NCBI GenBank assembly: GCA_009779835.1
Contig: WRBD01000002.1
Span: 20,622-84,621 of the forward strand
Length of the DNA stretch: 64,000 nucleotides
Direction of reading: 5' to 3'
Origin: Defluviitaleaceae bacterium
Lineage (GTDB): Bacteria; Bacillota; Clostridia; Lachnospirales; WQUN01
The translations under genes and the position numbers were made by a program. Below the pieces are notes generated by a model. That model was given only the letters and a program-made list of their open reading frames with translations, did not search any database and was not told where the DNA came from. Shown here one piece after another: positions 11,101-45,850 of this stretch (position 1 is the stretch's first letter; the number at the start of each line of letters is the position of its first letter).

Positions 11101-11384
11101 CATGATACCGTATTTCCGATTCCGCCCCTGCCCCAAGGCATTACAAAACCAACAGTACCGTTGGCACCGCCCTCAAGGGTGAACTCAAGAACTGCCATAG
11201 TGGTGTCTGTAAGAGCCAATCTTGAAAGTGCATTTGCGTCAATACGGAACGTGTATTCCGCTAAAGCGTCTTCGGGGGCATTCAACTGGTCAATAATTCT
11301 ACCTATACGCGCTCCGAACAAGTTCATGGGCAGTAAGGACATAACCATTACTACTGCCAAGAGTAAAGCTAATTTCTTTTTCAT
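8160..11384 (-). CDS. Large secreted cell-surface protein with C-terminal stalk (copper amine oxidase N-terminal-like) domains; function unknown
   Basis: 1074-aa ORF with signal peptide MKKKLALLLAVVMVMSLLPMNLFGA. C-terminus reads ...VTLDSPSATVNGNAVDI...VIEGRSYVPARFLAGIFGVPIEF (stalk-domain consensus). All plus-strand ORFs inside it are shadow ORFs. Confidence 0.6.
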   Translation of the reverse strand: MKKKLALLLAVVMVMSLLPMNLFGARIGRIIDQLNAPEDALAEYTFRIDANALSRLALTDTTMAVLEFTLEGGANGTVGFVMPWGRGGIGNTVSWTATPANSDINSEDPKFIGTSGTGIPYPHIRWGSEHMVSGPAITFTPGPDFEVRGATSGTEYAAVLARLNNIVATDRQYPQTPPGTTSSVMYNRPGANGWDWAGAPINDNRDHPAPHNVFLRQLSLVLLGGSDSTAFPPMDGWIHVTIRGIRAASDEATMSIALQEGGGAVRTRSTDLLREERLNVRWHNGVNISSVSVVPMAANAVLSGIKIQEDRVGGMLSRDPGTTNQMSYVRLIAPRGFRWDAGWGEVGDPDVHGLWGITPGRVRVHGNTAFPYPSNANNNDGEYEVNVRDNFINEHSGRNEIILEITTPARDTRFAARSTPAEITIHGMNLIPVRGAATTGNVAIDVYVGGPGGHRPSGATGPEEWFAGDHAFGMNRWGIGRPRHLNIPNNEPGHRYFRGDVAGSPWTQHAEGAQHWRERGLVVASFDFEGDVAISGPENMQTVRSGEWTSEVPFEPATANTILRAPDIASGLTTGGLLFGRNHNNRWMNGSNYSLRIAEVVHGSLFRSADRFELVPETEGVRIVDAQFRGGREGDISNLFNWGGFSVLGHEREFVSSVGSFEDDGSVEFFPRTWAPDLQSRLRHLDVRFVLSVEAGHEVKYGDEIGIRVYRNGVHIGTAAVANVYDPIKIEQDPAVEIERNQFDVLALTPVAPFSISEAEAGELEFGDQIRFRLQAVQGGREISIPVGEMELWLSDPVVNTADSGFELRKLPGNQLGFEVRNTSQGTAGSFEIEEVHLAGPTVPGIEWHVVVYGPEISRNSHLILGDTDFRYGSISGTRRTVVAGEINDYGDELPFEVRHGRFDRMPYNAEVLQVKGLAVIHPGAPGSTEPTTPGPSVGRRAFTRATMVEVDGVSIQAVEFPTVAPGVVSSMMNPRVFADFVGATVDWNEAARTATFTGIDTHGNSQTVVLTLDSPSATVNGNAVDIATGAGQGQLAGNIRPVVIEGRSYVPARFLAGIFGVPIEFQSGTVILG

Positions 11385-13211: not shown

Positions 13212-14261
13212 ATGAAACTTGAAAATTATCATGCACAGCAAGAAATGCAAAATATAATAAAACTGCGGGAGATGTTAAAAACTCTTCCGCAATTCGCGGT
13301 TGGATATTTTCGCAGTTTGGGCGACCAAACCGCCGCATTGACGCGACTTGCCTACGCCTACGATTTGCGGATTTTTTTTAAGTTTCTTGCGGAAGAAATT
13401 TTCGATAATACTTCCGTATGTTCCATATCAACCGATGATATGCGCAGAGTTGAATCCGACCATATCGAAGAATTTATGGAATATCTTTCGTATTACGTTC
13501 CCGCCGAAAACCCGGACGCGCCCCATACAAATACATCTTTGGGGAAGTCGCGCAAACTTGCGGCGGTGCGCGGTCTTTTTAAGTACTTATATAGGAAGAA
13601 ACTCATTCCCGCCAATCCCGCAGAACTTGTTGCGTTCCCGAAAATAAACGAAAAAGCCATAACAACTCTTGAGGTGAACGAAATCGCAAAGCTTCTTGAT
13701 GAAGTTGACAGCGGCGAAAATTTGACAGAGCGTCAAAAAATTTTTCACGAGCGCACAAAAATTCGTGACGCGGCAATAATCACGTTACTTCTTGGCACGG
13801 GAATGCGCGTTTCGGAATGCGTCGGGCTGGACATACGCGACATAGATTTTGAAGTGAACGGTCTTCGCGTAACACGAAAAGGCGGCGATGAAATGATTCT
13901 TTATTTCGGAGACGAAGTTGAAGCTGCGCTTTGCGCGCACTTGGAAATCCGCGAAGATTCCGATCCGATTGAAGGTCACGAAAACGCGTTGTTTCTCTCT
14001 TTACAAAACCGCCGCATCACCGACCGCGCCGTTCAAAAAATGGTAAAAAAATATGCATCATTAATTACTCAATTGAAAAATATTTCACCCCATAAATTAC
14101 GAAGCACCTTTGGCACACAGCTTTACGCCGAAACGGGCGACATTTATCTTGTTGCAAACGTGCTTGGTCACGCCGATGTTAACACCACCCGAAAGCATTA
14201 TGCGAAGATGGACGACACCTATCGCCGCAAAGCCGCAAACGCAGTACGCTTGCGTGAATAA
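13212..14261 (+). CDS. Tyrosine recombinase (XerC/XerD-like site-specific integrase)
   Basis: Catalytic-domain motifs TGMRVSECVGL (Arg), HKLRSTFGT (HxxR) and LGHADVNTTRKHY (His...Tyr) are present. Confidence 0.8.
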   Translation: MKLENYHAQQEMQNIIKLREMLKTLPQFAVGYFRSLGDQTAALTRLAYAYDLRIFFKFLAEEIFDNTSVCSISTDDMRRVESDHIEEFMEYLSYYVPAENPDAPHTNTSLGKSRKLAAVRGLFKYLYRKKLIPANPAELVAFPKINEKAITTLEVNEIAKLLDEVDSGENLTERQKIFHERTKIRDAAIITLLLGTGMRVSECVGLDIRDIDFEVNGLRVTRKGGDEMILYFGDEVEAALCAHLEIREDSDPIEGHENALFLSLQNRRITDRAVQKMVKKYASLITQLKNISPHKLRSTFGTQLYAETGDIYLVANVLGHADVNTTRKHYAKMDDTYRRKAANAVRLRE

Positions 14262-14949: not shown

Positions 14950-15672
14950 TCAACCAAAAATTAAAAAATAAATTACAGCAAACATTTCGCGCATATAATT
15001 TGCCGCAAAGCTGTGCCGTGGTGTGGGTGCGCCTATGGAGTTTGCGTCAATGCCAAGACTTCGTGCCTGCCAAGCGGCGCGGAAAACATGAAAATCATTT
15101 GTGATAACGACGGCACGAAAACCGCCGGGGAAATAATCCGTTAAAATTTCATTTGAGAATAAAAGATTTTCGTAAGTGGATGTTGATTTATCTTCTTGTA
15201 AAATTCTGTCCGGCGAAATTCCTTGCGCCACAAGATAACGCGACATTGCTTCCGCCTCTGTGATGTTGCGTCCTGCGCCAAGCCCGCCACTTACAACCGC
15301 AACGGCGTTGCGGTTTTCATTTAAGTATGTAACGGCAGTGTCCAAGCGCAAAGCAAGATGCGAACCTACTTCATCGCCGTTAAGCCCCGCACCTAACACA
15401 ATTACGGCGTTTTCGGTGTAGTCGGCATTGTTGCTTTTTCCGTAAATCATAAGAAATACCACGAAAAAAACAGGCACTGCGCAAGCCGCCCATAACACGA
15501 TATGAATTTTTCGTGGTATTTTCCCCAGAAAAATACCATACACCACCAGCACAGCCGCGGCAATCCCAAGCATTATGTGTCCGAAATGTATATTCGTTAC
15601 AAATAAAAGCGCAACAAAATTTATTAATGCAATTGTTCCGAAAGATATAAAAATAATTTTTAATGCCTTCAT
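14950..15672 (-). CDS. DUF218/YdcF (SanA-like) family membrane protein
   Basis: N-terminal TM helices, then VIVLGAGLNGDEV...AVVSGGLGAGRNITEAEAM...STSTYENL...ITNDFHVFRA, the DUF218 pattern. Start trimmed to MKALKIIF. Confidence 0.7.
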   Translation of the reverse strand: MKALKIIFISFGTIALINFVALLFVTNIHFGHIMLGIAAAVLVVYGIFLGKIPRKIHIVLWAACAVPVFFVVFLMIYGKSNNADYTENAVIVLGAGLNGDEVGSHLALRLDTAVTYLNENRNAVAVVSGGLGAGRNITEAEAMSRYLVAQGISPDRILQEDKSTSTYENLLFSNEILTDYFPGGFRAVVITNDFHVFRAAWQARSLGIDANSIGAPTPRHSFAANYMREMFAVIYFLIFG

Positions 15673-15817
15673 GACGCACTTCCCCCTCTTATGGCTAAAA
15701 AACTTAGAGTTATCTTCCTTCCGCAATTAAATGGTCGACCTTCTTCCATTATAAACGGGATAAATTGTGCTGTGTTGAAAGAATACCATTTAACTTTAAC
15801 TCGCAAAATGGCAACAA

Positions 15818-17218
15818 TTATCCCATAAAAAACGCAAGTATTCGTTGCCAAAGGCTTAATTTATGTTCGGGTTGCGGGGGCATGTGCAGGGTGTAGCGGT
15901 TGTTTTCGTATTTATGAAGCAGTTGATGGCGCATAAGAATCCAGTAGAAAGCTTCTTTAACTCGGAAGGGCTCAAGGGGACCATCAACGAAACCTTTTTC
16001 GATTGTCTCATTGGTTTCAGGGTCTGAAATTTGTTCGATGGTGGGTTTTTTTCCTAAGCTTGAAACGGCAAAACAATTAACGGCTTTAAAGCAACCTAGT
16101 GCATTATTTAAAATGCTTTCTTCGCCAAGGTACGAGAGAAGTTCGCGCACTTCTTGGTTTAAGCCCTTCATACTGCGCATATTTACCGCGCCTTGATGCA
16201 TTTCGTCCGTAAAAATATGCTGAATACGGTTTTCCGGTTTGTTGCCGAAAAATTCTAAATTAACGAAGCTTAAAAGGTCGGACTTGGACAAAACCAACGC
16301 CATCGGAATGTTGCTTTTTTCGCGGTCAAAACCAAGAAAATAATTGTAAAGCGTATTGAAAATTTGTTGGTTAGAGTTTTCTTCGGGAATGGCTTCGATA
16401 AGTGACGCATCGGTTACGCGGAATAGGTCTGAAAGTTTTGTGAAATTCGTCGGGTCTGCAAGGAAAATTAAGCCGCTTGAATCCTTAATGTTAAATCCGT
16501 GCTGCCGAATACCTGTGTCATCGCGCAAGTCCTCGCCTGCGATGTCGTAAAAAATGACATCAATTGAGTTCTCTTCCATTGCGCCGTCTTCGTTTTTATA
16601 ACGATACCAAAAATTAAACGCGTAAGGCGGAATCTTTCTGCGTTTGGTCGAGCTGATAAGTTCGTGGTTTTTTAATAATGGCTTTTGGTAATTTTCGTAA
16701 AATGTTTCTCGCACCTGCTTGTCGCCGATAAATGTCAACTTCGACGCGAAATCCATATTATTTTCAAGTTCGGAAATAAGTACTGTAAGAAAAACAGATT
16801 TACCGACACGGGCATCGCCAAGAATTGAAATAAGCAAAGTTTCACGAACGCCATAACCGATTGGCAAGTCGTTGTGACAGTTGGGACAAAGTCGTTGCTC
16901 GCAAATTATTTTTTTACCCTCTGGAAGAGTGTATGTTACACGTTGAGCAAACCCGTATTTTTCTAATTCGTTTTTTTCCACAGAAACCGCGTTATTTCCT
17001 TCAACTTCTATTGATAATGGCTGTGTTGCGTTTTTTGTTGCTTCCCTTTCGCTTATTTGCAGAACTTCAACTTGATAGTCGAATAATTTTTCATCAAGAA
17101 GCATGTTTTCGTTCTTTTTACTCTTGGTGGCGGAAACAGGCGCGGGCAGACGAAAATCCGCTTCATTCGGATGGAAGCGGTGACAACAAAACGGACAAAT
17201 AACAGGTTTTACTTTCAT
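15818..17218 (-). CDS. Zinc-ribbon plus P-loop (TRAFAC-like) GTPase; last gene of the vWA/tubulin-like operon
   Basis: CPFCC (aa 8-12) and CPNC (aa 111-114) form a split Cys4 ribbon. Walker A GDARVGKS lies at nt 16796-16819, with DIAGED (DxxG) and SKSD (degenerate NKxD) further on. The ATG overlaps the upstream stop (ATGA). Confidence 0.6.
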   Translation of the reverse strand: MKVKPVICPFCCHRFHPNEADFRLPAPVSATKSKKNENMLLDEKLFDYQVEVLQISEREATKNATQPLSIEVEGNNAVSVEKNELEKYGFAQRVTYTLPEGKKIICEQRLCPNCHNDLPIGYGVRETLLISILGDARVGKSVFLTVLISELENNMDFASKLTFIGDKQVRETFYENYQKPLLKNHELISSTKRRKIPPYAFNFWYRYKNEDGAMEENSIDVIFYDIAGEDLRDDTGIRQHGFNIKDSSGLIFLADPTNFTKLSDLFRVTDASLIEAIPEENSNQQIFNTLYNYFLGFDREKSNIPMALVLSKSDLLSFVNLEFFGNKPENRIQHIFTDEMHQGAVNMRSMKGLNQEVRELLSYLGEESILNNALGCFKAVNCFAVSSLGKKPTIEQISDPETNETIEKGFVDGPLEPFRVKEAFYWILMRHQLLHKYENNRYTLHMPPQPEHKLSLWQRILAFFMG

Positions 17219-17862
17219 TTATGTGTGCCTCCGGTAAGGTTAAACAGGTGGGAGTAATTTTCATCAAGAATAAATTTTACAGCTTGTTCTTTTTTAATAT
17301 AGAACCCGCACGCGCCGGCGCAAGAGAGCGTATCCAGAGGATATTCGCCGACCTTGCGCCCTTGTTCGTAAATTGCGTATTTTAAAATTTGTGTGACAAG
17401 TTGCATTTGAGAAGAATCATCCGCCATAACGCGAATGGTTGCCAACTGAAATTGACTAAGAGGAAGAGGTTTGAGCTTTACGGTTGTTTTTAAAGAAACT
17501 TTTTTGAATAACCAATCGGTTTCATATACGGGTTTGCAAATTGTAATGCCCTTGTCGTCATTAAAATACGCAGGCACGGCAATGAATTTGCTTTTTTTCT
17601 GAATATTTTTCGAGAACTTCGCCGAAAGTTCACGCGTAACAACCTCGTGCGGATGATTTTCATTTAACAATGTTTCAATGCCGGGAACTTCCGTTTCGTC
17701 GTCTGTCCACTCGAAGATAAAAAGCAGTTTAATAGTGCGGTTTTGCGGCCATTCCCATGTTAAAACAGCATTGTTTTTATCGTCCATACTCCGTTCGAAA
17801 CGCCGCAAATTCAAGGACGCGTCGGAGTTTTCTATTATCGTGTAGTTTGTTATCTTAGGCAT
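17215..17862 (-). CDS. Hypothetical 215-aa protein (operon gene 4)
   Basis: ORF fills the space exactly. Its start overlaps the upstream stop by 8 nt (ATGCCTAA) and its stop overlaps the next start by 4 nt. No motif recognised. Confidence 0.5.
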   Translation of the reverse strand: MPKITNYTIIENSDASLNLRRFERSMDDKNNAVLTWEWPQNRTIKLLFIFEWTDDETEVPGIETLLNENHPHEVVTRELSAKFSKNIQKKSKFIAVPAYFNDDKGITICKPVYETDWLFKKVSLKTTVKLKPLPLSQFQLATIRVMADDSSQMQLVTQILKYAIYEQGRKVGEYPLDTLSCAGACGFYIKKEQAVKFILDENYSHLFNLTGGTHK

Positions 17863-19705
17863 TTTTACTCACATCATAATAAAGTTCGTCTAAACTAAAC
17901 GCGCCCGAGTGGTACAAAACCGCCAAGCGGTTTACTGCGCTTCCGCTTTGCAATGCTTCTATTTCAGGTGCGAAAACATTCATACGCCCAAGCCCCCGTG
18001 CTTCGTATTGTTTTTTCACTTCGTAAGCGGCGTTTGCCTCCGGCATAAATAAATTTGCCTCTGTATAAAGTTTTGCGTATCCCGTTTTCAGCCGAATGCC
18101 GAAGTGAACGTGTTGTAACAGCCATTCGCTTAACGCGGCGGAAATATCTTCGCTGCCGGTAAGTTCCCGCAACAGAACATTTATGGGTTCCGTAAACTGC
18201 GGCGCGGGCAAAATATTTATTTCTATGAAATTTGATAGTCGTTTTGTAAAACCGGAAAATTCATTATTAAACAAAGCTTCCGTCATTTCTATTGACAATT
18301 TTTCAATTTCTCCGCTGTTTGTCTTGGCGTACTTTTTAAATTTTTTTCGGAAATAATCCGCGGCGTTTTGATTTTTGTTTTCAGTGAACGCCCGAAATGT
18401 TTCGTTAAGACGATGAATTTGATTTTCTTGCGCCAAAACAATGGCGTCAACTTCACTGATGTATTTTTTTATTTTTTTCAAATATCGTTCGATTAAACGC
18501 AACCTGTGTTTTAAAACATTAATTTTTTCTTTAATAAATTGCAAATTAATTTGTTTTTTCAAAAACTCCGACGCAAGTACATACGGAAATAAATTTTGAT
18601 TCTGTAACGGCGAAAGTCTGCGCGTTGCGGATTCGGGGCTACCCTTTGAAAAATCGGGTTTTTTTTCAAGCCATGCGTTTAATTTTTCTTCTGCGTCACA
18701 TAAATCGTTTTGCGATTTTTCTATAGCATCGGAAATGGCTTTTTTGTAAAATCCTTCTACTTGACGCGAAAGTTCATACAAGTTTGTAATTCCCGGGGAA
18801 AATTTATCATCATCGCTTGCGATTTCTTCGTAATCGTCCGCAATCTGTGCAAGCCTTTGCCCGAACAAGCGCGTAATCCACGCGCCGCGTGATAGCGGGT
18901 TGCTCAAATTAAATTCAGGAATCGCCAAACCGTACAAATAATCCATGCTTTTCGTCGGTCTTTTTTGCGGGAAAACGGGTTCGGGCACAGGTTCCGGCTC
19001 GTTCGGTTCATTTGGGCAATACGTCAAAATTTCTGCCATGATTAAAGCCTTTAACGCGTCTTGCGGAACAGATAAAACCAAACTTCCCGCCGTTAAAAAA
19101 TCTCCGTTTCGCGCCGCACAGTTTTCCAGAAAAAAGAACTCGCTATATCGGGACGCGTCCGCTTCGGCTATATATAAACCGGGCGAACAATCTTTAAAAA
19201 GCGTAAGCAACGCGGCAGTTTGCGCAGATTTACTCAGATGTTCGAAGGTATTTATGCTTGACAGGTTCGACAATAAATAAATTCGCTGATGTTCCCCGCA
19301 AAGTTTTTGAAGCATTTGCAAAACATTTTTTCTGCAAAACGTGTGCGAAAGTAAATTGGCATCATCTAGCAAACAGTAAATATCAACCAAAACACCCGCC
19401 GGATACAATGCCGAAAAATATTTTTCCGCCGAAACAATCAATTTCGGCAAAGCAAGCGCGGTTTCATCCGCATAAACAAAAAAATTTGCGCGAATAATAT
19501 CCGATTTTCCAACCCCGTTTGTTAAAAATTCCCGCCAACAGCGGCTTGCTTCTGTTCGGATAAATTCATCATCGAAATTGGCGGAAACTTTTATAAACTC
19601 CGCACCGTTAACATAAGTTCCTATCGCGTCCGTAAGCGACGCGGCAAAATCATTGCAATTTCCCAATGTGAAAAAAACAACAGGGTTGCTTATGATTCCT
19701 TTCAT
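17855..19705 (-). CDS. Hypothetical 616-aa protein with coiled-coil-rich C-terminal half (operon gene 3)
   Basis: ATG overlaps the tubulin-like gene stop (ATGA). The KKQINLQFIKEKINVLKHRLRLIERYLKKIKKYI region looks coiled-coil. No catalytic motif seen. Confidence 0.55.
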   Translation of the reverse strand: MKGIISNPVVFFTLGNCNDFAASLTDAIGTYVNGAEFIKVSANFDDEFIRTEASRCWREFLTNGVGKSDIIRANFFVYADETALALPKLIVSAEKYFSALYPAGVLVDIYCLLDDANLLSHTFCRKNVLQMLQKLCGEHQRIYLLSNLSSINTFEHLSKSAQTAALLTLFKDCSPGLYIAEADASRYSEFFFLENCAARNGDFLTAGSLVLSVPQDALKALIMAEILTYCPNEPNEPEPVPEPVFPQKRPTKSMDYLYGLAIPEFNLSNPLSRGAWITRLFGQRLAQIADDYEEIASDDDKFSPGITNLYELSRQVEGFYKKAISDAIEKSQNDLCDAEEKLNAWLEKKPDFSKGSPESATRRLSPLQNQNLFPYVLASEFLKKQINLQFIKEKINVLKHRLRLIERYLKKIKKYISEVDAIVLAQENQIHRLNETFRAFTENKNQNAADYFRKKFKKYAKTNSGEIEKLSIEMTEALFNNEFSGFTKRLSNFIEINILPAPQFTEPINVLLRELTGSEDISAALSEWLLQHVHFGIRLKTGYAKLYTEANLFMPEANAAYEVKKQYEARGLGRMNVFAPEIEALQSGSAVNRLAVLYHSGAFSLDELYYDVSKNA

Positions 19706-22700
19706 GCCAAAACTTCTTTCTCCCGTGTGAAAACTTCAATCATTGTTCGGTAGAAAATTCTTTTTAAAATACCGTCACGCTCGTCGTTGAATGTTTTTTC
19801 CAGCAATTCGAGTTTATTTGTGTAGCTTTCGATGTAACCGTCGATTATTTTGCCGAGTTGTTCAAACTGCGCGTCGGTTAAATCATTTTCCTCTTCCTGT
19901 GCGCGTTTTTGAAGATGCGCGGAAACATTTTCGTCTAAATTCATATATGCCTTGAAAACATCGTAATCTACAAATTGCTCAGCAAGATTTTGCATCGTGT
20001 GCAATATATGCGATTCACCGTCTATCGTGTAGCGGTAAGTCTTGCGGTTTTTTGAAATTACGCCCATGTATAAAAGTTGCGCAAAATGGCTGTATTTTAT
20101 TTCGCTTAAATCAATTCTGGAAAGCTCTTCGCGCAAAGCCGCCACATATTCACGAGTTTTCACCTCGTTTGCAACGTGTTCGCAAAGACGCGGCATATAA
20201 ATAAACACACCTTTTGCGTATTCGATATCCGGCGTATCGCTTTCGGTTAAATATTCCGTGTCGAAAAGCGGTTTATAATACTTTTCACGCGCTGAATCCG
20301 CCAAAAATTCGTTTAACTCGGAAATTGCCGCACGTGCTTGTGCCGCGCTAAAAGTTTTTTCTGTAATGCCCGTTTCAATGTGCGAAAACTTTTCGCTTAA
20401 GTCCACGCGGTCCCCGAAAAATCCAAAAAAACAGCGCGTACGTTCTTCCAAACGGATAATCTTATAATCCAGCGCACATTCAAAAAGATTACGTAAGCGA
20501 TTATTTCTTAAACGCTCGCGGTTGTTTTCGTAATCGGTAGTCCATAATTTATCGTAGTTAGGTGAAGGCAGTTCCTTCCAATTACGTTCGTTGCATTCGT
20601 ATAAATGCAAGCCCGCGATTTTATTCAGCGACGTTTCGTAAACTGCTTCGTACTCATTTAATTCCGTGTAACAGTACAGCGGCACCGCGATTTTCAAATT
20701 AAGCATATATAAACGATTATTCATTTTGCTTGATTTTGTATTGGAAACGCGCCCGGATGTGTTCATTTGGCGCACAATTCCGCGAATTTGCGGCGCATTG
20801 TGAGGCACGGAAAGATACGAATACGGCGGAAAAACAATATGCAAGCCTCCGGGTACGTGGTTTATCGGGAACATAACCTTAGCGCCTTCATGAAGTTCAT
20901 TTATTTTTTCCGTGATATACACTTCGAGATTTTCTTCTTTTGTTGACGCCATTAAATTACAATAATGGTCAAGCGATTTATAAACAACAGTTTGGAATTG
21001 CTGCGTTATAAATTCGTTTAAATTATCAACAATTTGCGCGCCGCCAATGTCGCTCCAGCCGGCAAGCATATCTTTTAACAACCGCTTGATTGCTTGCTTG
21101 TAGTCTAGTGACTTTACAGCTTCTTCATCTTTTTCAAATGCTTCACAAAATTCTTTAGCACCCGCTAAATTTTTCGCGAAATTTTCATTTTGGTCGGGTG
21201 AATTTTGCGCGTTTTTGAATTTATCAAATAGCTCTTTAAGCGCGTTTAAAATTTCGCAAAGCGTATCAACGGTTTGCTCTGAAAATTCACTAAGCTTTGC
21301 AAGCACCGCTTCGTATATTCTGTCAATTGCATCGTACATCAGGTTTTTTCCGCAAGCGCGTAAATAATTTTCACTTGTTTCAATTACACTTTCCGATAAC
21401 GATTTTTTCCCTAATCCAATCAACGATTTTTTCAAAAGCTTCGCCATAAGTGCTTGGCGCGAAATATCCATCGCTGCCAAATTGTCGCGATGTTCGCGTT
21501 TTTGAGAAATATCACGTTTGCGCAACGTGTCAATTGCACGGTTAGCGGAAGCTTCGTGAAGGTCTGAAAGCATTCTCAACGTATAAAACGGTCCGCGCTC
21601 CAAATCGGAAAAATCTTGGGAAAGCGCGGTTTCGTTAAAGCTTGCGATTACCGCGTCCGCCGCGCTGTCGTAGTGGTCTTTCAAGCGGTTTAACTCGCTT
21701 TTTATTGCGTCTTCAATAATTTCGGGGCGTTGCTGCAAGACTATATGGTCGTATTGCTTGAAACTTCGCGGCTTAGGTTTATCCGTCGAAAGAACCCTTT
21801 CAAGCGTCGGCAAATCAATTTTAAGAGTTTCAAGCGCAAGTTTTCCGTCTTCAATTGTAGGACTTTTTTCGGCAAGCGGCTCAAGTTCCGCAAACATTTT
21901 CGATGCAAGATAATTTAACAAATATTCAATCGGAAGTGATGCGCTTGATGCGCCAATCGTGTTGTAAATATAGTTCACCGGCTGTTTTTGACTGTGCGTC
22001 ATTAAAAACGCGGCTTTATTATTTTCGATATTAGAAAGATACGAACTAATTGTATAACTTTGCCCATCCGTAACTTCTTCGCTTGCGATAAAATTTATAA
22101 TTGTTTCAGCGGCTACATTCATACAATAATTTTTCGCGGCAGGAACAAGCTTGCCGTGTTCGTCCTTCGCGCTTACAAGATGACACAAATCATATGGCGG
22201 TTCGTTTGTTTTTATTTCAAGATCAGCGAAAGTTTGCTCGAAAGTATCGCCGTTGCGCTCGATATTCATTAGATAATCAAGCTCTTTCAGCGCGGCAAAC
22301 CCGTTTGCTTTAATATTCAACGCGGCAGAACCATCAATCATGCTGTCCGAAAGCGTGACATCCGGCAGAAAAACCATTCCGATATTTTCTGTTTCAAATC
22401 CTTTTTGTTCCGCAATTTTCCGCACAATATACGGTACGTCAATAAAAACGCCGCTTCCCGTGCCGCCCGCACAGCCGGATAAAATAAATACATATAAAAG
22501 ATCATTTGATTTCCTGTTCACCGTCAAGCGGTTAATTTTTTCTGTTATAAGGCTGATTACGCGGTTGCTGTTAATCGTAAGCAAAAGCCGCCCCGCTTGC
22601 CGGATTCCACCCGCGCCGTGCTTTACCTGCTGTAAACGCAAATTACCCGCGATCCAGCTTTGCGTCGAATCTTTAAAAACTGTTTCGCGGTTTTTATAAA

Positions 22701-23040
22701 CCGAAGTTAAATTCGAGTTATCCAAAAGCAAAAATTCATCTTCCGAAAAAGACATTCCGTTATAATTTAAATTCAGCATATTATCGTCAGAGTCCAGTGC
22801 TAAATATTCAATTTGCGAAGGTTTATCCAATCTGCGCCCGCTTGCGGAGACGCCCAATTTAAAATGCCTGTTAACCGACTTTTTGACACGAATAAGAGCC
22901 TCCGCACCTGTACCGCCGAGGCCAATAATCAATATAGGTTTTTCAATTGCGTCCGTTCGCGTGCCTTGCGTAGAGATTCCGCCGCCGTACTCGCTGTCCA
23001 AAGCTTGCAGTTCGACCTTTATTTCGGAGGATAATTTCAT
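19702..23040 (-). CDS. Giant tubulin/FtsZ-superfamily-like GTPase (about 1110 aa) with long helical C-terminal extension
   Basis: Contains ILIIGLGGTGAEA (T1-like, nt 22906-22923), HGAGGIRQAGR (T3-like) and SGCAGGTGSGVFID (T4 tubulin signature, nt 22450-22470), in canonical order and spacing. I prefer ATG 23040, 7 nt after AAGGGTG; the ORF track begins at TTG 23046. Confidence 0.75.
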   Translation of the reverse strand: MKLSSEIKVELQALDSEYGGGISTQGTRTDAIEKPILIIGLGGTGAEALIRVKKSVNRHFKLGVSASGRRLDKPSQIEYLALDSDDNMLNLNYNGMSFSEDEFLLLDNSNLTSVYKNRETVFKDSTQSWIAGNLRLQQVKHGAGGIRQAGRLLLTINSNRVISLITEKINRLTVNRKSNDLLYVFILSGCAGGTGSGVFIDVPYIVRKIAEQKGFETENIGMVFLPDVTLSDSMIDGSAALNIKANGFAALKELDYLMNIERNGDTFEQTFADLEIKTNEPPYDLCHLVSAKDEHGKLVPAAKNYCMNVAAETIINFIASEEVTDGQSYTISSYLSNIENNKAAFLMTHSQKQPVNYIYNTIGASSASLPIEYLLNYLASKMFAELEPLAEKSPTIEDGKLALETLKIDLPTLERVLSTDKPKPRSFKQYDHIVLQQRPEIIEDAIKSELNRLKDHYDSAADAVIASFNETALSQDFSDLERGPFYTLRMLSDLHEASANRAIDTLRKRDISQKREHRDNLAAMDISRQALMAKLLKKSLIGLGKKSLSESVIETSENYLRACGKNLMYDAIDRIYEAVLAKLSEFSEQTVDTLCEILNALKELFDKFKNAQNSPDQNENFAKNLAGAKEFCEAFEKDEEAVKSLDYKQAIKRLLKDMLAGWSDIGGAQIVDNLNEFITQQFQTVVYKSLDHYCNLMASTKEENLEVYITEKINELHEGAKVMFPINHVPGGLHIVFPPYSYLSVPHNAPQIRGIVRQMNTSGRVSNTKSSKMNNRLYMLNLKIAVPLYCYTELNEYEAVYETSLNKIAGLHLYECNERNWKELPSPNYDKLWTTDYENNRERLRNNRLRNLFECALDYKIIRLEERTRCFFGFFGDRVDLSEKFSHIETGITEKTFSAAQARAAISELNEFLADSAREKYYKPLFDTEYLTESDTPDIEYAKGVFIYMPRLCEHVANEVKTREYVAALREELSRIDLSEIKYSHFAQLLYMGVISKNRKTYRYTIDGESHILHTMQNLAEQFVDYDVFKAYMNLDENVSAHLQKRAQEEENDLTDAQFEQLGKIIDGYIESYTNKLELLEKTFNDERDGILKRIFYRTMIEVFTREKEVLA

Positions 23041-23056
23041 TATCAAACACCCTTAA

Positions 23057-25003
23057 TTAATTTTCAAAAGCGCGATAAGTAATTTCCAGTTTCGGAGATT
23101 CGCCCGGAATTGAAAAGATTAATTGCTGACCGTCTTCCCAAATAATTTTTTTCTTGAAAATTGAATTGCCATCGCCATCTGTTATATGGCATCCCGAGCC
23201 TTTTTTATGAAGTTGAATTATCGGTTGATTACCTTGCATTCCGGGTGATAGAAGAATATCCCATATGGGAATGCCCGATTGAACAAGTTTGTCTGCCTTT
23301 GAGCCACCCAAGCTATTGTTTAAGAATTCCATCAGCGACATTTCACCGGCGAAAGTGCTGATATCCGGGGCTTCAAGAGATGTGTAATTACCGTCGGAAA
23401 GTAGTGCGCGCAATTCTAAGTGACCTGTGTAAACGCGATTTCTTATTCTGCGAAGACTTATTACTCGTAAAAGTATTGCGGCAACTGCAAGCGCGACAGC
23501 TATTCCCATTAAAATAAAAATCATGGAACTGCCTGTTTCAATGTCTTCGGGTTCGGTTGCAACAACGGGCGAAGGGGTTTCTTCCGGTTCCGGCTGCTCC
23601 GGCGGTGTTTCTGTATCTTCAATTTCATCCGGTATGGTGGACGGAGGGGCAGGTATTTCCCTCAATACTTCCGGGTCAAAGGTGATGGAAAAAAACGCGG
23701 TGGTTTGCTCGAAATGCGGGTGAGATACATTTACGTTTACACGAACATCCTGCGGAGGGTCAAGAAAAAAATCCAACGTGAAAGCAGACCCTGTATTTAC
23801 CATCGGGAAAGTCGCAACAAGGTTATGTTGCATATCGTAAACGGCAAGCTCCACCGTCGCTCCATCAAAAAGCGGCTGAAAATGTGACGACGGTAACGAA
23901 GAAACAAACCCTGCCTGCACCGCGATTGGCAATGACGGGTCGAAGTAAAGCGCGCCGTCTTCGGCACTTGGCTGGGTTACGGAAAGCGAAACATTCACAT
24001 TATAATTGTAAATTAAATTTATTGTAATTCTATCTTCGGGCAAGCCGCGAACGTGAAGAAGCCAATCGCCCACCATAGGTGAAAGCACCTTAATCATGGA
24101 ATAACGATTGGCAAATGAAAGTGTATACGGTTCTTCACCGAGCGGCACTTCAATCCCGGACGGGTCGAAAAGGCGTATGCCCGGAATTTGCCGCGACGAA
24201 AGCATAATAATATTTGCTTCCGCAACAAAAAGGCTTGGAATAGGAACTATAACATCTGCGTAGGTTTCACCGTCGGCTACTATTGACGCAATCTCCGTGA
24301 TGGACGAGCGTATGTGCGACGCGAATATTTCATTAAAAATCTGCGGCAAAGCATCGGCTTCGCTCGCGATATAAGACTTTGCGCTTGTGCGCTGTGCAAT
24401 TTCATGCAAGAAAGGCTCATTTAAAGTTCCGTCGAAATTTAACCCGATTGTGTAAATAGCGGCAAAATCGCCGACATTATCAACCGCCCACCATGCGTCT
24501 TCGTATGAAGCTTCTACAGTGCGGTTGTTTGCCCAATTGGTTGGAAGTTCTATTTGTCCGTCGGTGAAAAGCAGAATCATCGGGCTGTTAGAGGGCGACG
24601 GGTCATTAATAAGCATTTCGGCGGCGGTTCGCATTGCCAAACCGATATCCGTCCAACCGTGATACACAAAACCCGAAATCGTCCGTCTTATATTATTTCT
24701 TATGGAAGGGTCATTTATTTGCGTAAGCGGCATTACAGAATGCAAACCGCCCGAAAACCCCACTATTCCGATACGCGAATTACGCGTTTCCATCATGTCC
24801 ATAAAAAGTTGCGCCGCTTCAAGAGTAATGCGTTCAGGGTCTGATGTACGCATAGAGCCGCTTGTGTCAATTACCAAAATTACGTCAATGCCATCTGCCG
24901 GGGCTTCTGCCACCGCCGGAGTATGTACAAAAAGAAACGCAAATAAAATAGAAACCGCAAGATAAACAAGCCACATAACGCTTTTTGCGCGATGACCAAT
25001 CAC
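23057..25003 (-). CDS. Single-pass transmembrane von Willebrand factor A (vWA) protein; first gene of the operon
   Basis: Signal peptide ...FLFVHTPAVAEA, then vWA with MIDAS DTSGSMRTSD (nt 24854-24868), a beta-rich region, a Pro/Glu linker, TM segment MIFILMGIAVALAVAAILLRVI (nt 23463-23528) followed by RRIRNR, and a cytoplasmic tail of about 130 aa. GTG start. Confidence 0.8.
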   Translation of the reverse strand: MIGHRAKSVMWLVYLAVSILFAFLFVHTPAVAEAPADGIDVILVIDTSGSMRTSDPERITLEAAQLFMDMMETRNSRIGIVGFSGGLHSVMPLTQINDPSIRNNIRRTISGFVYHGWTDIGLAMRTAAEMLINDPSPSNSPMILLFTDGQIELPTNWANNRTVEASYEDAWWAVDNVGDFAAIYTIGLNFDGTLNEPFLHEIAQRTSAKSYIASEADALPQIFNEIFASHIRSSITEIASIVADGETYADVIVPIPSLFVAEANIIMLSSRQIPGIRLFDPSGIEVPLGEEPYTLSFANRYSMIKVLSPMVGDWLLHVRGLPEDRITINLIYNYNVNVSLSVTQPSAEDGALYFDPSLPIAVQAGFVSSLPSSHFQPLFDGATVELAVYDMQHNLVATFPMVNTGSAFTLDFFLDPPQDVRVNVNVSHPHFEQTTAFFSITFDPEVLREIPAPPSTIPDEIEDTETPPEQPEPEETPSPVVATEPEDIETGSSMIFILMGIAVALAVAAILLRVISLRRIRNRVYTGHLELRALLSDGNYTSLEAPDISTFAGEMSLMEFLNNSLGGSKADKLVQSGIPIWDILLSPGMQGNQPIIQLHKKGSGCHITDGDGNSIFKKKIIWEDGQQLIFSIPGESPKLEITYRAFEN

Positions 25004-25048
25004 TCAACATCTATCCTTCCGAAAGGAAAAATTCGCATTATTTACGAC

Positions 25049-25077
25049 ATTGTAATATGTTTGGGAATTTTTGTCTA
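25049..25077 (-). promoter_or_regulatory. Promoter of the vWA/tubulin-like operon (TAGACA-17-TACAAT)
   Basis: On the minus strand, TAGACA (plus 25072-25077), an exact 17-nt spacer, then TACAAT (plus 25049-25054), about 45 nt upstream of the GTG start. Confidence 0.55.
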
Positions 25078-25083
25078 GTACTA

Positions 25084-25131
25084 CTGAAAAATCCCCCAAA
25101 TTTTCCGGGATGGAAAAAATGGGGGATTTGG
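25084..25131 (-). terminator. Terminator after the CAP-domain protein gene
   Basis: Stem AAATCCCCCA / TGGGGGATTT (25089-25098 / 25120-25129), followed on the minus strand by a T-run. Separates the upstream gene from the vWA operon. Confidence 0.65.
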
Positions 25132-25140: not shown

Positions 25141-26811
25141 CTATTCGGGTTCTTCGGTCGGTGCGGGTGAGGCTGTTGGTTCGGGTGTTGGTTCGGGTGT
25201 TGGTGTGGGCGTTGGTGTGGGTTCCGGTGTTGGGGTTGGGGTCGGTGTTGGAGTGGGAGTGGGAGTGGGAGTAGGAGTAGGAGTAGGAGTAGGCGTGGGT
25301 GTAGGCGTCGGAGTCGGCGTTGCAGCCGTAAACGCTACAAATTTTTGTGTAACATATGCTCCTCCGCCGCCTGCGCTTGCAAAAGAGACACCTACACCGA
25401 CATGAGTATTTTCTGTGCTTAAGATATTGTTTCTGTGTACAGACGAGCTCATCCAGTTGCTAATGGTTGCCTCCGGTGTATTGTGATTGCGGTTATTATT
25501 TTCAGCCCACCTGTGCAAGTTGTTTATACCCACGCGGGAAAGCCTTGTGGTTGCGTTTGAACCGTCAGACCCGGTGTGGCTTAACATATTGTTTATGCGC
25601 AAATCATCACTGTGGTTGCGGGCGGCGGTTGCAACCCTGCTTTCCCAAATTAAAGGAGCAAGCCCGTTTTTCGACCGTTCTTCATTTGTAAGTTCAAAAA
25701 TTCTTTGTTCAAATTGAGACGCGGTTAACGGCGCGGGAGTGGGCGAAGGAGAAGGTATAGGTCCCGGTAAATTGGTTGTAGCTTGTGCGGTAGATGTTAT
25801 CAGATAGATAAAACCGCCTGAGCCATCCGCTCTGATATTTACACCTATGCCAATGCTTCGGCAATTTGTAGTAAAGATGGATGAGCTCGTGGTCATCATC
25901 CAGCTATCTACTACGTCCTGAGGGGTTATAATAGTGTTGCCGAATGTACGCTCTCTTTCGATAGACAGAGTGTTACCAAAAGCTATAACAGTGCCGCTGC
26001 TACCGCCATACGGCCCTACACTATTTCCCTGCGACAAATTCAGATTCACTTTAGTTTGAGTGTAGAAGCGGGCTGCCATCATGAGCCGCGTGTCTGTACC
26101 TAAGTGCCTGTGATCCCGGTCTGCTTGAATTTCGTTGATAAGGCGAATAACTTCACGTTCAAATTCGTTCGGGCCGCCAAGGTCTGTATACTCTTTTATC
26201 CATGCGGTCATTTCGGTTTGATTCAACTGCCTGTTCGGTAAAGTTATTTTAGAACGTGTTGATTCTACAACAGTACGCCAATGCTCAAGCGAACCGGGTG
26301 CAGGCGTAGGAGAGGGTGTCGGGCTGGGTTCCGGAGTTGGTTCAGGCGTGGGTTGCGGTGTAGGGCTTGGTGGAGCAACCGCCGAGTTTACAATAACCGT
26401 ACGCGCTGCGCTATCCCAATCCACGTTCACGCCAACGCTTTCAAGAGGAAATCTTATAGGAATAAGCGTTCTTCCGTTGAAAATTTGTGCGGGAACATCC
26501 AGAGGGTAAGTCATGCCGTTTGTCGTAAACACGCTGCTTCCAACGGGAATGGATACTATATAATCCTGGCTCCACATTACTACGGTTCTTATGGCTTCGT
26601 CCCAAATAACCTCGAAGCCAAGTGATTCAAACACTCCGCGAACGGGAACAAGTGTTCTTCCGTCAATAATAACCGGGTCTTGGTTTTGGAACACGACCCT
26701 TCTGCCGTCAACCGTAACAACTACGCCCCCCGCAGGTGACGCAAACGCCACAATTCCAAAAACCATAACAGCAACAGTAAAAAATAAAATAACTCTGCGC
26801 ATTACTTTCAA
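25141..26811 (-). CDS. Secreted protein: two stalk domains, CAP/SCP (YkwD-like) domain(s) and a C-terminal (TP)n tail
   Basis: Signal peptide, then [37 protein letters not shown] and [22 protein letters not shown] (stalk). The CAP-like region reads [16 protein letters not shown]...ARNHSDDL...SHTGSDGS...WAENN...[12 protein letters not shown]...HVGVGV. The protein ends in a TP repeat. Confidence 0.7.
25170..25320 (-). repeat. Hexanucleotide-period low-complexity repeat encoding (Thr-Pro)n
   Basis: Plus strand reads ggtgttgg / ggagtggg / ggagtagg units. The minus strand encodes TPTPTPTP...[18 protein letters not shown] at the gene's 3' end. Confidence 0.85.
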
Positions 26812-45795: not shown

Positions 45796-45850
45796 AAATT
45801 TGGATTTTTCGCATACTCTTTTGATATACCAAGAAATGGGAGGTGAACCT

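Follow-up and report, generated by a model that had tools for sequence, protein, structure and literature searches.

The five minus-strand genes at 15818-25003 of the 64-kb stretch of DNA analysed here (the window) represent, with a probability of about 85%, a pared-down version, with five genes, of the FtsZl1/Tubulin_2-vWA-GTPase system of the firmicute tubulin theme, from which the second vWA gene (vWA2) and GAP1 have been lost. The architecture is already known from comparative genomics of 2010 and 2020, and what sets this locus apart is that it has neither GAP1 nor a second vWA gene.

Organization of the operon

In the 5' to 3' direction the genes encode vWA1, TUB1, TUB2, FN3 and a zinc-knuckle DO-GTPase (Table 1), and the ORFs lie exactly where a preliminary description of this DNA had placed them. 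Direct reading of the junctions confirmed a 16-nt gap between the vWA1 stop codon and the TUB1 ATG at 23040, and three start/stop overlaps: ATGA at 19702-19705 (TUB1/TUB2), ATGCCTAA at 17855-17862 (TUB2/FN3) and ATGA at 17215-17218 (FN3/DO-GTPase). Seven loci carry homologs of all five proteins in this same order, indicating that the arrangement is beyond chance, and the locus is a genuine five-gene operon.

Table 1. Features of the five-gene operon, in window coordinates
Feature	Position	Strand	Basis or remark
Terminator hairpin of upstream CAP-domain gene	25089..25129	-	5' boundary of operon
Candidate sigma-70-like promoter TAGACA-17-TACAAT	25049..25077	-	upstream of vWA1; 10/12 matches
vWA1, 648 aa, GTG start	23057..25003	-	Pfam VWA_2 7e-15, VWA 7e-14
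vWA domain, aa 40-224 of vWA1	24332..24886	-	complete MIDAS
Single TM segment (predicted), aa 488-520 of vWA1	23444..23542	-	Kyte-Doolittle mean 2.99, 19-residue windows
vWA1 tail (predicted cytoplasmic), aa 521-648	23060..23443	-	few conserved residues
TUB1, FtsZl1/Tubulin_2 protein, 1112 aa	19702..23040	-	Pfam PF13809 E 5.9e-66
Tubulin_2 GTPase domain, aa 39-387 (numbered from TTG 23046)	21886..22932	-	Pfam
TUB2, predicted pseudo-tubulin, 616 aa	17855..19705	-	AF2, PDB fold search, hhalign
FN3, 215 aa, predicted cytoplasmic FNIII-like beta-sandwich	17215..17862	-	AF2 + Foldseek
Zinc-knuckle DO-GTPase, 466 aa	15818..17218	-	Pfam DO-GTPase2 PF19993, 28.7 bits vs GA 27

The hairpin terminator reported for the upstream gene is present, with 18-nt arms (25089-25106 and 25112-25129; 89% complementary), a 5-nt loop and a T-run. 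The operon had also been credited with its own promoter. TAGACA-17-TACAAT is indeed the top-scoring promoter-like match of the region; however, as 17 such matches were observed there against 18.6 expected from shuffles, it is compatible with a promoter and no demonstration of one. At the other end, the stretch from the DO-GTPase stop (15818) to the DUF218 gene, located on the same strand 91 nt downstream, yielded no intrinsic terminator. An integrase gene (13212-14261) follows about 1.5 kb past the operon 3' end.

Protein products of the operon

All the motifs listed in the preliminary description were found in the translations: DTSGS and RRIRNR in vWA1, GLGGTG, GAGGIRQAGR and AGGTGSG in TUB1, and CPFC...CPNC, GDARVGKS, DIAGED and SKSD in the GTPase. 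From hydropathy and conservation across 80 sequences, vWA1 was found to carry, in this order, a signal-like hydrophobic N-terminus (aa 6-34), the vWA domain, a beta-rich region, a Pro/Glu-rich linker, the TM segment and the tail. The MIDAS residues (D46-x-S48-x-S50, T118-D119 and D148-G149) are retained in at least 85% of the 80 homologs. RRIRNR follows the TM segment, and by the positive-inside rule the C-terminus should be cytoplasmic; the tail gave no Pfam, NCBIfam or PADLOC match. Both Pfam and hydropathy agree with the vWA domain and one TM helix described earlier, and vWA1 is predicted to be a membrane vWA protein of type-I topology whose MIDAS is intact.

A tubulin/FtsZ-type GTPase had been recognized in TUB1, and the Tubulin_2 match is near-complete, covering profile positions 1-353 of 356; the PF00091 match was below threshold (24.8 bits vs GA 33). 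Of the two candidate starts, TTG 23046 and ATG 23040, the latter is the likelier because AAGGGTG, a Shine-Dalgarno sequence, lies 7 nt upstream of it, and NCBI annotates the 1112-aa form. The conserved motifs of the GTPase domain are T1 (GLGGTG; 84/84 homologs), GAGGIRQAGR, T4 (GGTGSG; 83/84) and an H5-like NGFAALKELDYLMN. Beyond this domain TUB1 continues for about 700 aa in a conserved extension, and full-length homologs are of about 1129 aa across Firmicutes. In the account of Makarova and Koonin (2010; PMC2875224), the T6-H7/T7 elements required for canonical FtsZ polymerisation were not identifiable in FtsZl1, and filament formation by FtsZl1 is therefore putative.

The two middle genes had been listed as unknowns. 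For TUB2, the coiled coil noted before is there as a long hairpin (aa 309-436), preceded by an N-terminal domain that is Rossmann-like but has no glycine-rich GTP loops, and followed by a C-terminal alpha/beta region; the protein is in fact a degenerate second tubulin-like protein. The AF2 model (pLDDT 86, pTM 0.76) gave FtsZ and tubulin as top PDB fold matches (E 1e-2, prob 0.99, about 255 columns). By hhalign, the TUB2 of the window matched Bacillales TUB2 (prob 96.9, E 1.4e-10), which in turn matched TUB1 in profile comparison (prob 96.1, E 3e-9), and Paenibacillus TUB2 matched Pfam Tubulin_2 at 5e-4. The T4 motif was detected in none of 84 TUB2 homologs. These models and profiles indicate that TUB2 is a diverged TUB1 paralog in which the glycine GTP-binding loops are gone and which is predicted to be GTPase-dead. 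To FN3 a fold can now be assigned: its AF2 model (pLDDT 79), which includes a small C-terminal alpha/beta element, matched FNIII domains throughout in the Foldseek PDB search (7u08, E 8.7e-4, prob 1.00). Positional orthologs of FN3 are held by the seven-gene loci described below (HMM of the window's FN3 vs Hungatella u206, 9e-12; u206 vs Paenibacillus u217, blastp about 1e-7). The mean identity is 32% for TUB2 and FN3 versus 59-61% for TUB1 and DO-GTPase, indicating about twofold faster divergence.

The zinc-ribbon P-loop GTPase described earlier matched DO-GTPase2 above GA in Pfam, and clear DO-GTPase2 proteins at 2e-41 to 2e-68 in BLASTP. It carries CPFC(8-11)...CPNCH(111-115), GDARVGKS, T191, DIAGE, KSD and FAVSSLG, and the G1-G5 motifs and Walker B Glu are conserved across 84 homologs. 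Judged from these motifs, the protein is a DO-GTPase2 with a complete set of G motifs. In the account of Kaur et al. (2020; PMC7159879), GAP1 is the constant core partner of DO-GTPases and co-evolves with them as a neighbouring or fused gene. With a GAP1 profile made from 66 sequences, which recovers the divergent Hungatella GAP1 at 5e-12, no GAP1 was found in the six-frame-translated window or in the tested five-gene loci related to it (best E 0.26). Both GAP1 and the second vWA gene are absent from this locus and from all six related five-gene loci.

Distribution and selection of the system

About 70 Bacillales and Clostridium loci carry seven genes in the order vWA1-TUB1-TUB2-vWA2-FN3-GTPase-GAP1. 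The presence of Pfam GAP1-N2 and GAP1-M in these relatives links the family with the DO-GTPase systems that Kaur et al. described. The five-gene form was found in the window and six Defluviitaleaceae relatives, a narrow clade whose loci (7/7) have all kept the five genes together. Since the domain calls are also correct, two of the three points on which the preliminary description depended held up. The genomic place differs in each of these loci, even at 88% TUB1 identity, and the flanks, mostly housekeeping, include yabP/yabQ/divIC, rplI/dnaB, mreB and flagellar rod genes. Enrichment near defence islands, suggested earlier as a check, was not seen: among the flank proteins examined individually, the sole defence-type neighbour was a type II methyltransferase in one of the seven loci, and PADLOC gave zero matches for all five proteins.

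All five ORFs are intact in the seven loci. The dN/dS ratio is about 0.05-0.15 for the four genes with computable dS, and FN3 showed pN of 0.16 against pS of 0.80; the five-gene form is under purifying selection, with no sign of diversifying selection in gene-wide dN/dS. At 50% identity the short TUB2 family falls into about 24 clusters, a spread showing that the reduced form has endured over long divergence. Within Defluviitaleaceae the cassette is patchy and of either type, MAG L023 carrying the complete seven-gene type. Conservation of the seven-gene form is wide in Paenibacillus and extends to its neighbours, a pattern that resembles vertical inheritance more than that typical of defence cargo. 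Relatives were found in more than 530 species-level genomes, and additional paralogous GTPase-GAP1 modules are stacked in Clostridium genomes. One Hungatella locus adjoins a gene for an NADase-translocation protein.

Comparison with known systems and possible role

Both papers cited in the preliminary description explicitly cover this architecture. The tubulin theme of Kaur et al. (2020; PMC7159879), one of their GAP1-N2 DO-GTPase conflict systems, is described as two tubulin plus coiled-coil genes, a membrane vWA protein with an extracellular domain, an FNIII component and a ZnR-GTPase. With its representative in Paenibacillus polymyxa, the window shares order and orthology for all five genes (identity 32% for vWA1, 31% for full-length TUB1 and 25-32% for the DO-GTPase2 with zinc knuckles; profile level for TUB2 and FN3). 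It differs from the theme in having neither GAP1, the constant partner that defines the system, nor the second vWA gene, of the cytoplasmic kind, in a TUB2 shorter by about 170-250 aa, and in the additional Pro/Glu-rich linker of vWA1; also missing is the divergently transcribed ZnR-TM gene (311 aa) conserved upstream in 62 Bacillales loci. The vWA-FtsZl1-GTPase operons of Makarova and Koonin (PMC2875224) share with the window an adjacent vWA gene with intact MIDAS and signal/TM, a diverged GTPase of the P-loop type to which a Cys-rich element is fused, and lineage-specific unknown genes between, which their account of these operons does not identify as pseudo-tubulin and FNIII protein; in contrast to those operons, the present one has no OmpA-like or protein-kinase genes. 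As stated in the preliminary description, no function has been defined by experiment: our literature search gave neither an experimental study nor a solved structure of any system member.

The sensor or anchor wired to a two-GTPase, possibly filament-forming machine, as first proposed, may hold; it agrees with published predictions and is uncontradicted here. We infer the contacts, polymerisation, ligand and physiological role of such a machine as follows. vWA1 would be a type-I surface receptor whose MIDAS-bearing head is carried on a beta-rich stalk at the cell exterior, with the Pro/Glu-rich linker spanning the wall and a tail of about 125 aa in the cytoplasm. An extracellular or envelope ligand bound at the MIDAS would alter the tail's state or clustering, and the tail, via the fast-evolving adaptors TUB2 and FN3, might recruit or nucleate TUB1 for GTP-dependent assembly beneath the membrane. 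The zinc-knuckle DO-GTPase could act as an on/off or threshold switch, the output being a sub-membrane tubulin-like assembly. Animal integrins likewise combine an extracellular MIDAS vWA/I-type domain, a beta-sandwich stalk, a single TM pass and a short cytoplasmic tail, linked in outside-in signalling to a nucleotide-driven polymer controlled by a small GTPase. The resemblance is an analogy, with homology limited to the vWA fold; the polymer here would be tubulin-like instead of actin, and its contacts are putative. The full chain, role included, is tentative, at slightly under an even chance.

An accessory stress or conflict response, in which invader or envelope damage would be sensed at the surface and a growth-arresting or membrane-reorganising polymer would be the effector, appears more likely than a housekeeping cytoskeleton. 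The tight gene junctions, the domain, fold and motif assignments, retention of T1/T4 in TUB1 with their loss in TUB2, fast TUB2/FN3 divergence, relocation as a unit, purifying selection and the links to both published systems count for the proposed reading as a whole; the T6-H7/T7 elements not identifiable in FtsZl1, the lack of PADLOC match, defence island and diversifying selection, the conserved neighbours in Paenibacillus, and the absence of GAP1, with which the GTPase is proposed to be coupled, count against it. A serious if doubtful alternative is that the same machine serves membrane or envelope remodelling (vesicles, septum- or spore-associated work, surface anchoring), the vWA ectodomain being a cell-wall anchor instead of an invader sensor. 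Membrane remodelling was proposed for FtsZl1 operons by Makarova and Koonin (PMC2875224), and it accords with the membrane association of the system, the wall-spanning linker and single TM segment of vWA1, the strong purifying selection and strikingly constant TUB1 length (1129 aa in most Bacillales), the wide occurrence of relatives, the housekeeping or sporulation flanks and the zero defence-database matches. However, the cassette sits at a different locus in each genome examined, close relatives included, and is patchy in Defluviitaleaceae, both atypical of core morphogenetic genes; the stacked Clostridium modules, the Hungatella NADase-translocation neighbour and rapid TUB2 and FN3 evolution also speak against it.

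The missing GAP1, a constant partner of DO-GTPases (PMC7159879) yet absent in all seven five-gene loci, might mark a non-functional, decaying remnant of the seven-gene system; this is largely refuted by the intact ORFs, pN far below pS in all five genes, the retention of all catalytic motifs and the long persistence seen in the TUB2 clusters. Supply of GAP1 and vWA2 in trans from another genomic site is unlikely, although the clade has access to GAP1 through the seven-gene type of L023 and the search spanned 64 kb of this genome: the GAP1 profile found nothing in the loci searched, DO-GTPase and GAP1 co-evolve adjacent or fused (PMC7159879), and at about 25-32% identity to seven-gene-type GTPases cross-talk seems improbable. 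A TubZ-like type III partition module for a plasmid, prophage or chromosome region is the least probable of all. A small operon that lies near an integrase gene and encodes a divergent GTPase of the tubulin superfamily would suit it; however, no TubR-like DNA-binding gene, iteron or centromere-like repeat array was found around the operon, the context is chromosomal housekeeping, TubZRC has no counterpart to the membrane vWA receptor or P-loop GTPase, and 2.9 million viral contigs yielded only two remote relatives. Besides lacking TubR and a centromere, the operon differs from TubZ, PhuZ and the tubulins in the huge C-terminal extensions of its proteins. It shares with alpha/beta-tubulin, BtubA/B, TubZ and PhuZ a GTPase of the tubulin/FtsZ superfamily, and its two adjacent paralogs may pair as in the alpha/beta-tubulin and BtubA/B heterodimers; alpha- and beta-tubulin both bind GTP, whereas the nucleotide loops of TUB2 are lost altogether.

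Organization of the operon

The preliminary description had placed five minus-strand ORFs in this part of the window. After re-reading of the ORFs, all five were recovered at exactly the same coordinates (see the table), and every motif that it had quoted was found in the translations. The genes are tightly arranged: a gap of 16 nt separates vWA1 from TUB1, and the next junctions are, in order, ATGA, ATGCCTAA and ATGA overlaps. Of the two possible TUB1 starts, the ATG at 23040 carries the Shine-Dalgarno sequence AAGGGTG 7 nt ahead and is the start annotated by NCBI. Promoter-like sites, the best of which lies upstream of vWA1, were not more frequent in the region than in shuffled sequence (17 observed vs 18.6 expected). 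At the other end, the interval that separates the GTPase stop codon from DUF218 on the same strand contained no detectable intrinsic terminator, and DUF218 may be co-transcribed with the cassette in the window genome. A DUF218 gene adjoining the cassette was not conserved in the other loci surveyed. The five-gene core, 9.2 kb long and with a predicted single promoter and tight junctions, is a naturally minimal unit suited to heterologous expression, reconstitution and cryo-EM.

Features of the window and of related loci (window coordinates unless a locus is named)
Feature	Position	Strand	Details
vWA1, operon protein 1	23057-25003	minus	648 aa, GTG start
TUB1, Tubulin_2/FtsZl1 protein	19702-23046 or 19702-23040	minus	TTG start, 1114 aa, or ATG start, 1112 aa
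TUB2	17855-19705	minus	616 aa, ATG start
FN3	17215-17862	minus	215 aa, ATG start
FN3 gene start	17787-17862		JGI gene call P0030 starts at Met26 (190 aa)
GTPase, zinc-knuckle DO-GTPase	15818-17218	minus	466 aa, ATG start
Promoter-like TAGACA-17-TACAAT	25049-25077		best such site in the region
Strong hairpin	25089-25129		end of upstream gene
Interval, GTPase stop to DUF218 gene	15727-15817		searched for intrinsic terminator
DUF218 gene	14950-15726	minus	91 nt downstream of GTPase stop
Cu_amine_oxidN1 protein	8160-11384	minus	1074 aa, no other recognised domain
CAP-domain protein	25141-26811	minus	556 aa; Pro/Thr/Glu-rich tandem-repeat C-terminus at 25175-25322
Low-GC segment, four genes	45779-50149	plus	HTH + Peptidase_M78 (ImmA/IrrE-like, 401 aa); radical SAM/SPASM (335 aa); uncharacterised 516 aa, no Pfam match; 236-aa ORF
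CBM_2 + subtilase protein	53198-58681	plus	1827 aa
~311-aa and ~590-aa genes upstream of vWA1	L011, 4958-7698	minus	example locus
Genes upstream of vWA1, Hungatella MAG	L004, 2334-7399		NADase_transloc match (476 aa); two uncharacterised proteins (762, 445 aa)
Gene downstream, Hungatella MAG	L004, 20944-22104		YARHG-domain protein
UvrA gene	L010, 2614-5457 (= L089, 1-2062)		C-terminal half matched by mad3 (E 7e-106) and mad8 (E 2.5e-42)

vWA1, TUB1 and the GTPase

vWA1 matched both VWA_2 (E 7e-15) and VWA of Pfam, and the MIDAS residues D46-x-S48-x-S50, T118 and D148 were retained in at least 85% of 80 homologs. As the N-terminus (aa 6-34) is hydrophobic and signal-like and RRIRNR follows the only TM segment (aa 488-520), the head should be located outside the cell and the tail of about 125 aa inside, giving an N-out/C-in receptor with an intact MIDAS. 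A Pro/Glu-rich linker ahead of the TM segment was confined to the clade of the window.

The second protein had been described as a tubulin/FtsZ-like GTPase, and this held: TUB1 matched Pfam Tubulin_2 (PF13809) end to end (E 5.9e-66, 223.6 bits with GA 27, profile 1-353 of 356), and the T1 loop GLGGTG was kept in all 84 homologs and the T4 loop GGTGSG in 83. This match assigns TUB1 to FtsZl1, the family described by Makarova and Koonin. The score against canonical PF00091 was 24.8 bits, below GA 33, and was confined to the T4 region (aa 166-229), and the Pfam search gave no match of TUB1 to FtsZ_C or Tubulin_C. Judged from these profiles, TUB1 and canonical FtsZ/tubulin are separate families within one superfamily. 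In the FtsZl1 family, FtsZ_C or Tubulin_C is replaced by a long C-terminal extension of coiled-coil or alpha-helical type; in TUB1, the extension of about 700 aa gave weak matches only, to helical families, with conserved blocks reaching the C-terminus. Full-length relatives of about 30% identity were found in Paenibacillus, Brevibacillus, Bacillus, Priestia, Clostridium and Hungatella, and relatives are encoded in at least 530 GTDB species genomes. Scanning of viral contigs detected two remote relatives only, and the system is therefore not phage-borne. Neither the TUB1 profile nor the GTPase had a match in PDB sequence searches, and we found no experimental study or solved structure for any member of the FtsZl1/Tubulin_2 family.

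For protein 5, the earlier assignment as a zinc-ribbon P-loop GTPase was borne out. The score against Pfam DO-GTPase2 (PF19993) was 28.7 bits, just over GA 27, and BLASTP E-values of 2e-41 to 2e-68 were obtained to proteins with clear PF19993 matches, on which protein 5 is clearly homologous to DO-GTPase2 proteins. Two CPxC knuckles, GxxxxGKS, the switch-I Thr, FxDxAGE, KSD and FAVSxLG were kept among 84 homologs, the corresponding window motifs being Walker A GDARVGKS, Walker B DIAGE and SKSD. The P-loop motifs of this GTPase are thus intact.

FN3 and TUB2

Both middle proteins had been left as unknowns in the preliminary description. The 215-aa ORF itself stood, and its product is an FNIII-like protein as judged from the AF2 model (pLDDT 79), for which the top Foldseek matches in the PDB were all FNIII (prob 1.00, best E 8.7e-4). 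The model contains a single clear beta-sandwich and no long repeat array. The family profile also recovered the positional counterparts of FN3 in the larger loci. A hydrophobic segment is lacking in FN3, and therefore the protein should be cytoplasmic. As to its start, the longer 215-aa form is supported over the shorter JGI call because residues upstream of Met26 are conserved in homologs (for example, L19) and a strand is modelled at aa 7-11; the start of the longer form overlaps the stop of the preceding gene.

TUB2 had been considered a coiled-coil-rich protein, and in the AlphaFold2 model (29-homolog alignment, pLDDT 86, pTM 0.76) a long coiled-coil hairpin (aa 309-436) was indeed observed, together with an N-terminal domain of alternating beta/alpha elements and an alpha/beta region at the C-terminus. 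TUB2 had no Pfam match, and the word index gave 29 homologs only, all from Defluviitaleaceae-like MAGs. The best PDB folds for the model were FtsZ and tubulins over about 250-290 columns, at a modest E of 1e-2 and with other Rossmann-like folds intermixed; Foldseek search against the viral structures of BFVD gave generic Rossmann-like matches only and was uninformative. Direct profile-profile comparison of the short-TUB2 family (A1) with the TUB1 family (A3) detected only a coiled-coil match of 10% probability. The short family aligned over 519 columns (prob 96.9%, E 1.4e-10) with its larger positional counterpart from Bacillales and Clostridium loci, and this larger family aligned with TUB1 over 457 columns from a shared ELDY helix (prob 96.1%, E 3e-9). 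The relation between TUB2 and TUB1 is therefore visible only with the Bacillales TUB2 family as a bridge. The Paenibacillus TUB2 matched Pfam Tubulin_2 at 5e-4. Among 84 TUB2 proteins, the T4 motif was present in none and a T1-like motif in one. This profile chain, the FtsZ/tubulin fold matches and the absence of T4 from all 84 proteins identify TUB2 as a diverged TUB1 paralog without nucleotide loops, a pseudo-tubulin. The operon carries one tubulin-family protein in which the GTP loops are intact and one that lacks them. When 1.84 billion representative proteins were searched exhaustively with the short-TUB2 profile, only 44 relatives were recovered, about 24 of them short forms, which places the five-gene variant in a narrow clade. 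P0179, the most divergent of the short TUB2 proteins, is encoded on a contig too short for its neighbourhood to be informative.

Gene content of related loci

ORFs were called and classified in 86 loci. In about 70 loci of Bacillales and Clostridium, the order was vWA1-TUB1-TUB2-vWA2-FN3-GTPase-GAP1 with a TUB2 of 780-860 aa, and GAP1-N2 and GAP1-M were both present in the seven-gene examples checked by precomputed Pfam annotation. The window and all complete loci of its clade (L001, L006, L008, L009, L010/L089 and L090) carry vWA1-TUB1-TUB2-FN3-GTPase, with a TUB2 of 590-650 aa and nothing further; the same genes in the same order thus form a conserved five-gene unit. The order in Hungatella was intermediate, vWA1-TUB1-TUB2-FN3-GTPase-GAP1-like-vWA2, and one Defluviitaleaceae MAG locus (L023) was of the seven-gene type. 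The insert between the zinc knuckles of the GTPase was rejected as a discriminator of the two forms (90-123 aa vs a median of 86 aa).

No GAP1 match of Pfam was found in the five proteins or in flanking ORFs. An HMM of 66 GAP1 sequences, which recovered the divergent Hungatella GAP1 at 5e-12 as positive control, detected none in six-frame translations of the 64-kb window and of the five-gene loci tested (best E 0.26). In L090, the closest relative, rplI follows the GTPase directly. The same-strand genes that follow the GTPase in L006 and L010 were rejected as candidates for a cryptic GAP1, since they encode a hybrid histidine kinase and a flagellin. vWA2 was absent from all seven five-gene loci and present in the approximately 70 seven-gene loci. 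Since forms with GAP1 have a broad taxonomic range and the five-gene form a narrow one, loss of GAP1 and vWA2 would be the parsimonious direction for the latter.

Additional genes were observed around the larger loci. In seven-gene loci of Bacillales, a divergent gene of about 311 aa (N-terminal Cys4 zinc ribbon plus TM segments) lies just upstream of vWA1 in 62 loci, and in 36 loci there is a divergent gene of about 590 aa whose product carries a TM segment at the N-terminus. Both were absent in all five-gene loci and are not mentioned in the accessible text of Kaur et al. (PMC7159879); they may represent additional parts of the system in Bacillales. Six Clostridium loci (L005, L061, L065, L070, L079 and L082) carry a second module directly upstream of the seven-gene system, FN3-like (340-450 aa)-GTPase (~392 aa, three CxxC knuckles)-GAP1 (~890 aa)-TM-GTPase (~446-488 aa), and two DO-GTPase/GAP1 sets are therefore stacked around one tubulin pair. 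The genes flanking the Hungatella MAG locus L004 (table) are possibly a toxin-type elaboration of the system.

Relation to published systems

Makarova and Koonin (2010; PMC2875224) described operons in which FtsZl1 occurs together with vWA proteins that carry a MIDAS, with lineage-specific genes of unknown function and with a diverged P-loop GTPase to which a Cys-rich domain is in some cases fused; they predicted a membrane-remodelling machine. DO-GTPase systems were defined by Kaur et al. (2020; PMC7159879), with DO-GTPase and GAP1 as the constant pair and the Walker B Glu as the family hallmark. The DO-GTPases belong to the TRAFAC GTPases and in most cases carry one or more zinc ribbons at the N-terminus. 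Their GAP1-N2 type includes an FNIII component, and its firmicute theme consists of two tubulin plus coiled-coil genes and two vWA genes, one of which is membrane-bound with an extracellular vWA domain; these were read as conflict systems, the tubulin forming an effector assembly. No entry for Defluviitalea, Tubulin or DO-GTPase was found in the accessible part of their supplement.

The window shares with the first class a vWA gene with intact MIDAS, hydrophobic N-terminus and one TM segment, and a diverged P-loop GTPase in which Walker A, Walker B and xKxD are all present. It shares with DO-GTPase/GAP1-N2 systems the zinc-knuckle DO-GTPase with the Walker B Glu and the FNIII component, and with the firmicute theme the two tubulin-type genes, TUB1 by Pfam and TUB2 by the profile chain and model. 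However, GAP1, in the scope of 64 kb, and the second vWA gene are missing. Because of these two differences, the five-gene locus should be regarded not as a canonical member of the firmicute theme but as a reduced derivative, which most likely works like one. The system class is already known from the comparative genomics of 2010 and 2020, and the locus reveals no new system; new here are the minimal GAP1-less five-gene version and the naming of the two middle genes, one coding for a pseudo-tubulin and the other for an FNIII adaptor. A partition role of TubZ type (TubZRC type III) was rejected, as the operon contains no TubR-like gene and no repeat or iteron array was found in or around it.

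Constraint and relocation

Between the window and L090, pN was far below pS in all five genes. The dN/dS ratios, approximate because dS is near saturation, were 0.05 for both TUB1 and GTPase, 0.11 for vWA1 and 0.15 for TUB2; for FN3, dS was saturated (pN 0.16, pS 0.80). Mean pairwise identities among six five-gene loci were 59% for TUB1, 61% for GTPase, 44% for vWA1, 32% for TUB2 and 32.5% for FN3. The rate of evolution of TUB2 and FN3 is thus about twice that of TUB1 and GTPase, slow enzymes standing beside fast non-enzymatic partners. The five-gene core persists under purifying selection although GAP1 and vWA2 are missing.

The flanks differed among all seven five-gene loci. Even in L090, with 88% TUB1 identity to the window, the cassette is located between yabP/yabQ/divIC and rplI/dnaB, whereas in the window its neighbours are the DUF218 gene and the gene of a secreted CAP-domain protein. 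The five genes of the cassette therefore change location together, and no mobility gene was recognisable among them. The flanks of five-gene loci are mostly housekeeping genes, and the sole defence-type neighbour left after PADLOC check was a type II methyltransferase in L009. An apparent MADS system in one flank was rejected, since the protein matched by mad3 is UvrA by Pfam; for the same reason, housekeeping ABC ATPases of UvrA type can be matched strongly but falsely by the mad3 and mad8 models.

Proposed mechanism and role

FtsZl1/Tubulin_2 is the most divergent branch of the tubulin superfamily, and the two published predictions for it, membrane remodelling and biological conflict, differ. 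In the mechanism proposed here, a ligand would bind the vWA1 MIDAS outside the cell and the vWA1 tail would relay the signal inward to TUB2 and cytoplasmic FN3, which may assist TUB1 assembly beneath the membrane, with the DO-GTPase gating this assembly. TUB1 polymerisation is a proposal only, because equivalents of T6-H7/T7 were not found in FtsZl1 according to the accessible text of Makarova and Koonin (PMC2875224). Naming TUB2 as a pseudo-tubulin and FN3 as an adaptor sharpens hypotheses on how a surface vWA receptor might control a cytoplasmic tubulin-like polymer.

We tentatively favour an accessory role in conflict or stress response, with a probability of roughly 0.45, because the cassette changes location between close relatives and is patchy within Defluviitaleaceae, because in relatives paralogous modules are stacked or an NADase-type protein is encoded next to the system, and because the putative sensor and adaptor parts evolve fastest. 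The same observations speak against a housekeeping role in envelope remodelling, which we rank below it as a possible alternative. That role would agree with the lack of a defence-island context and with the search of PADLOC-DB v2.0, in which the five proteins had no meaningful match (best LmuB at 9e-4, on the coiled coil, and SspC at 0.012); gene-wide positive selection was not seen, and conservation in Paenibacillus looks vertical.

An unlikely further reading takes the five-gene cassette for an autonomous machine, in which GTPase-dead TUB2 and GTP-binding TUB1 would pair as an obligate heterodimer or nucleator, paralleling in bacteria the specialised tubulin pairs, and TUB2 plus FN3 would replace the sensor coupling of GAP1 and vWA2. 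The pathway would be integrin-like and outside-in, from extracellular MIDAS receptor through cytoplasmic tail and small GTPase switch to tubulin-type polymer. If true, this would be the first prokaryotic cytoskeletal assembly controlled by a surface receptor, and the cassette would provide a minimal construct for working out the whole FtsZl1/DO-GTPase class.

Other features of the window

The segment at 45779-50149 is low in GC (36% vs about 44% elsewhere) and its four genes are tightly packed or overlapping. This segment resembles a cassette acquired by horizontal transfer and is perhaps a candidate for peptide modification or defence. Two of the large secreted proteins of the window, at 8160-11384 and 25141-26811, contain Cu_amine_oxidN1 ('stalk') domains; such proteins, including the CBM_2 plus subtilase protein, are typical of a Gram-positive, plant-fibre-associated gut bacterium.
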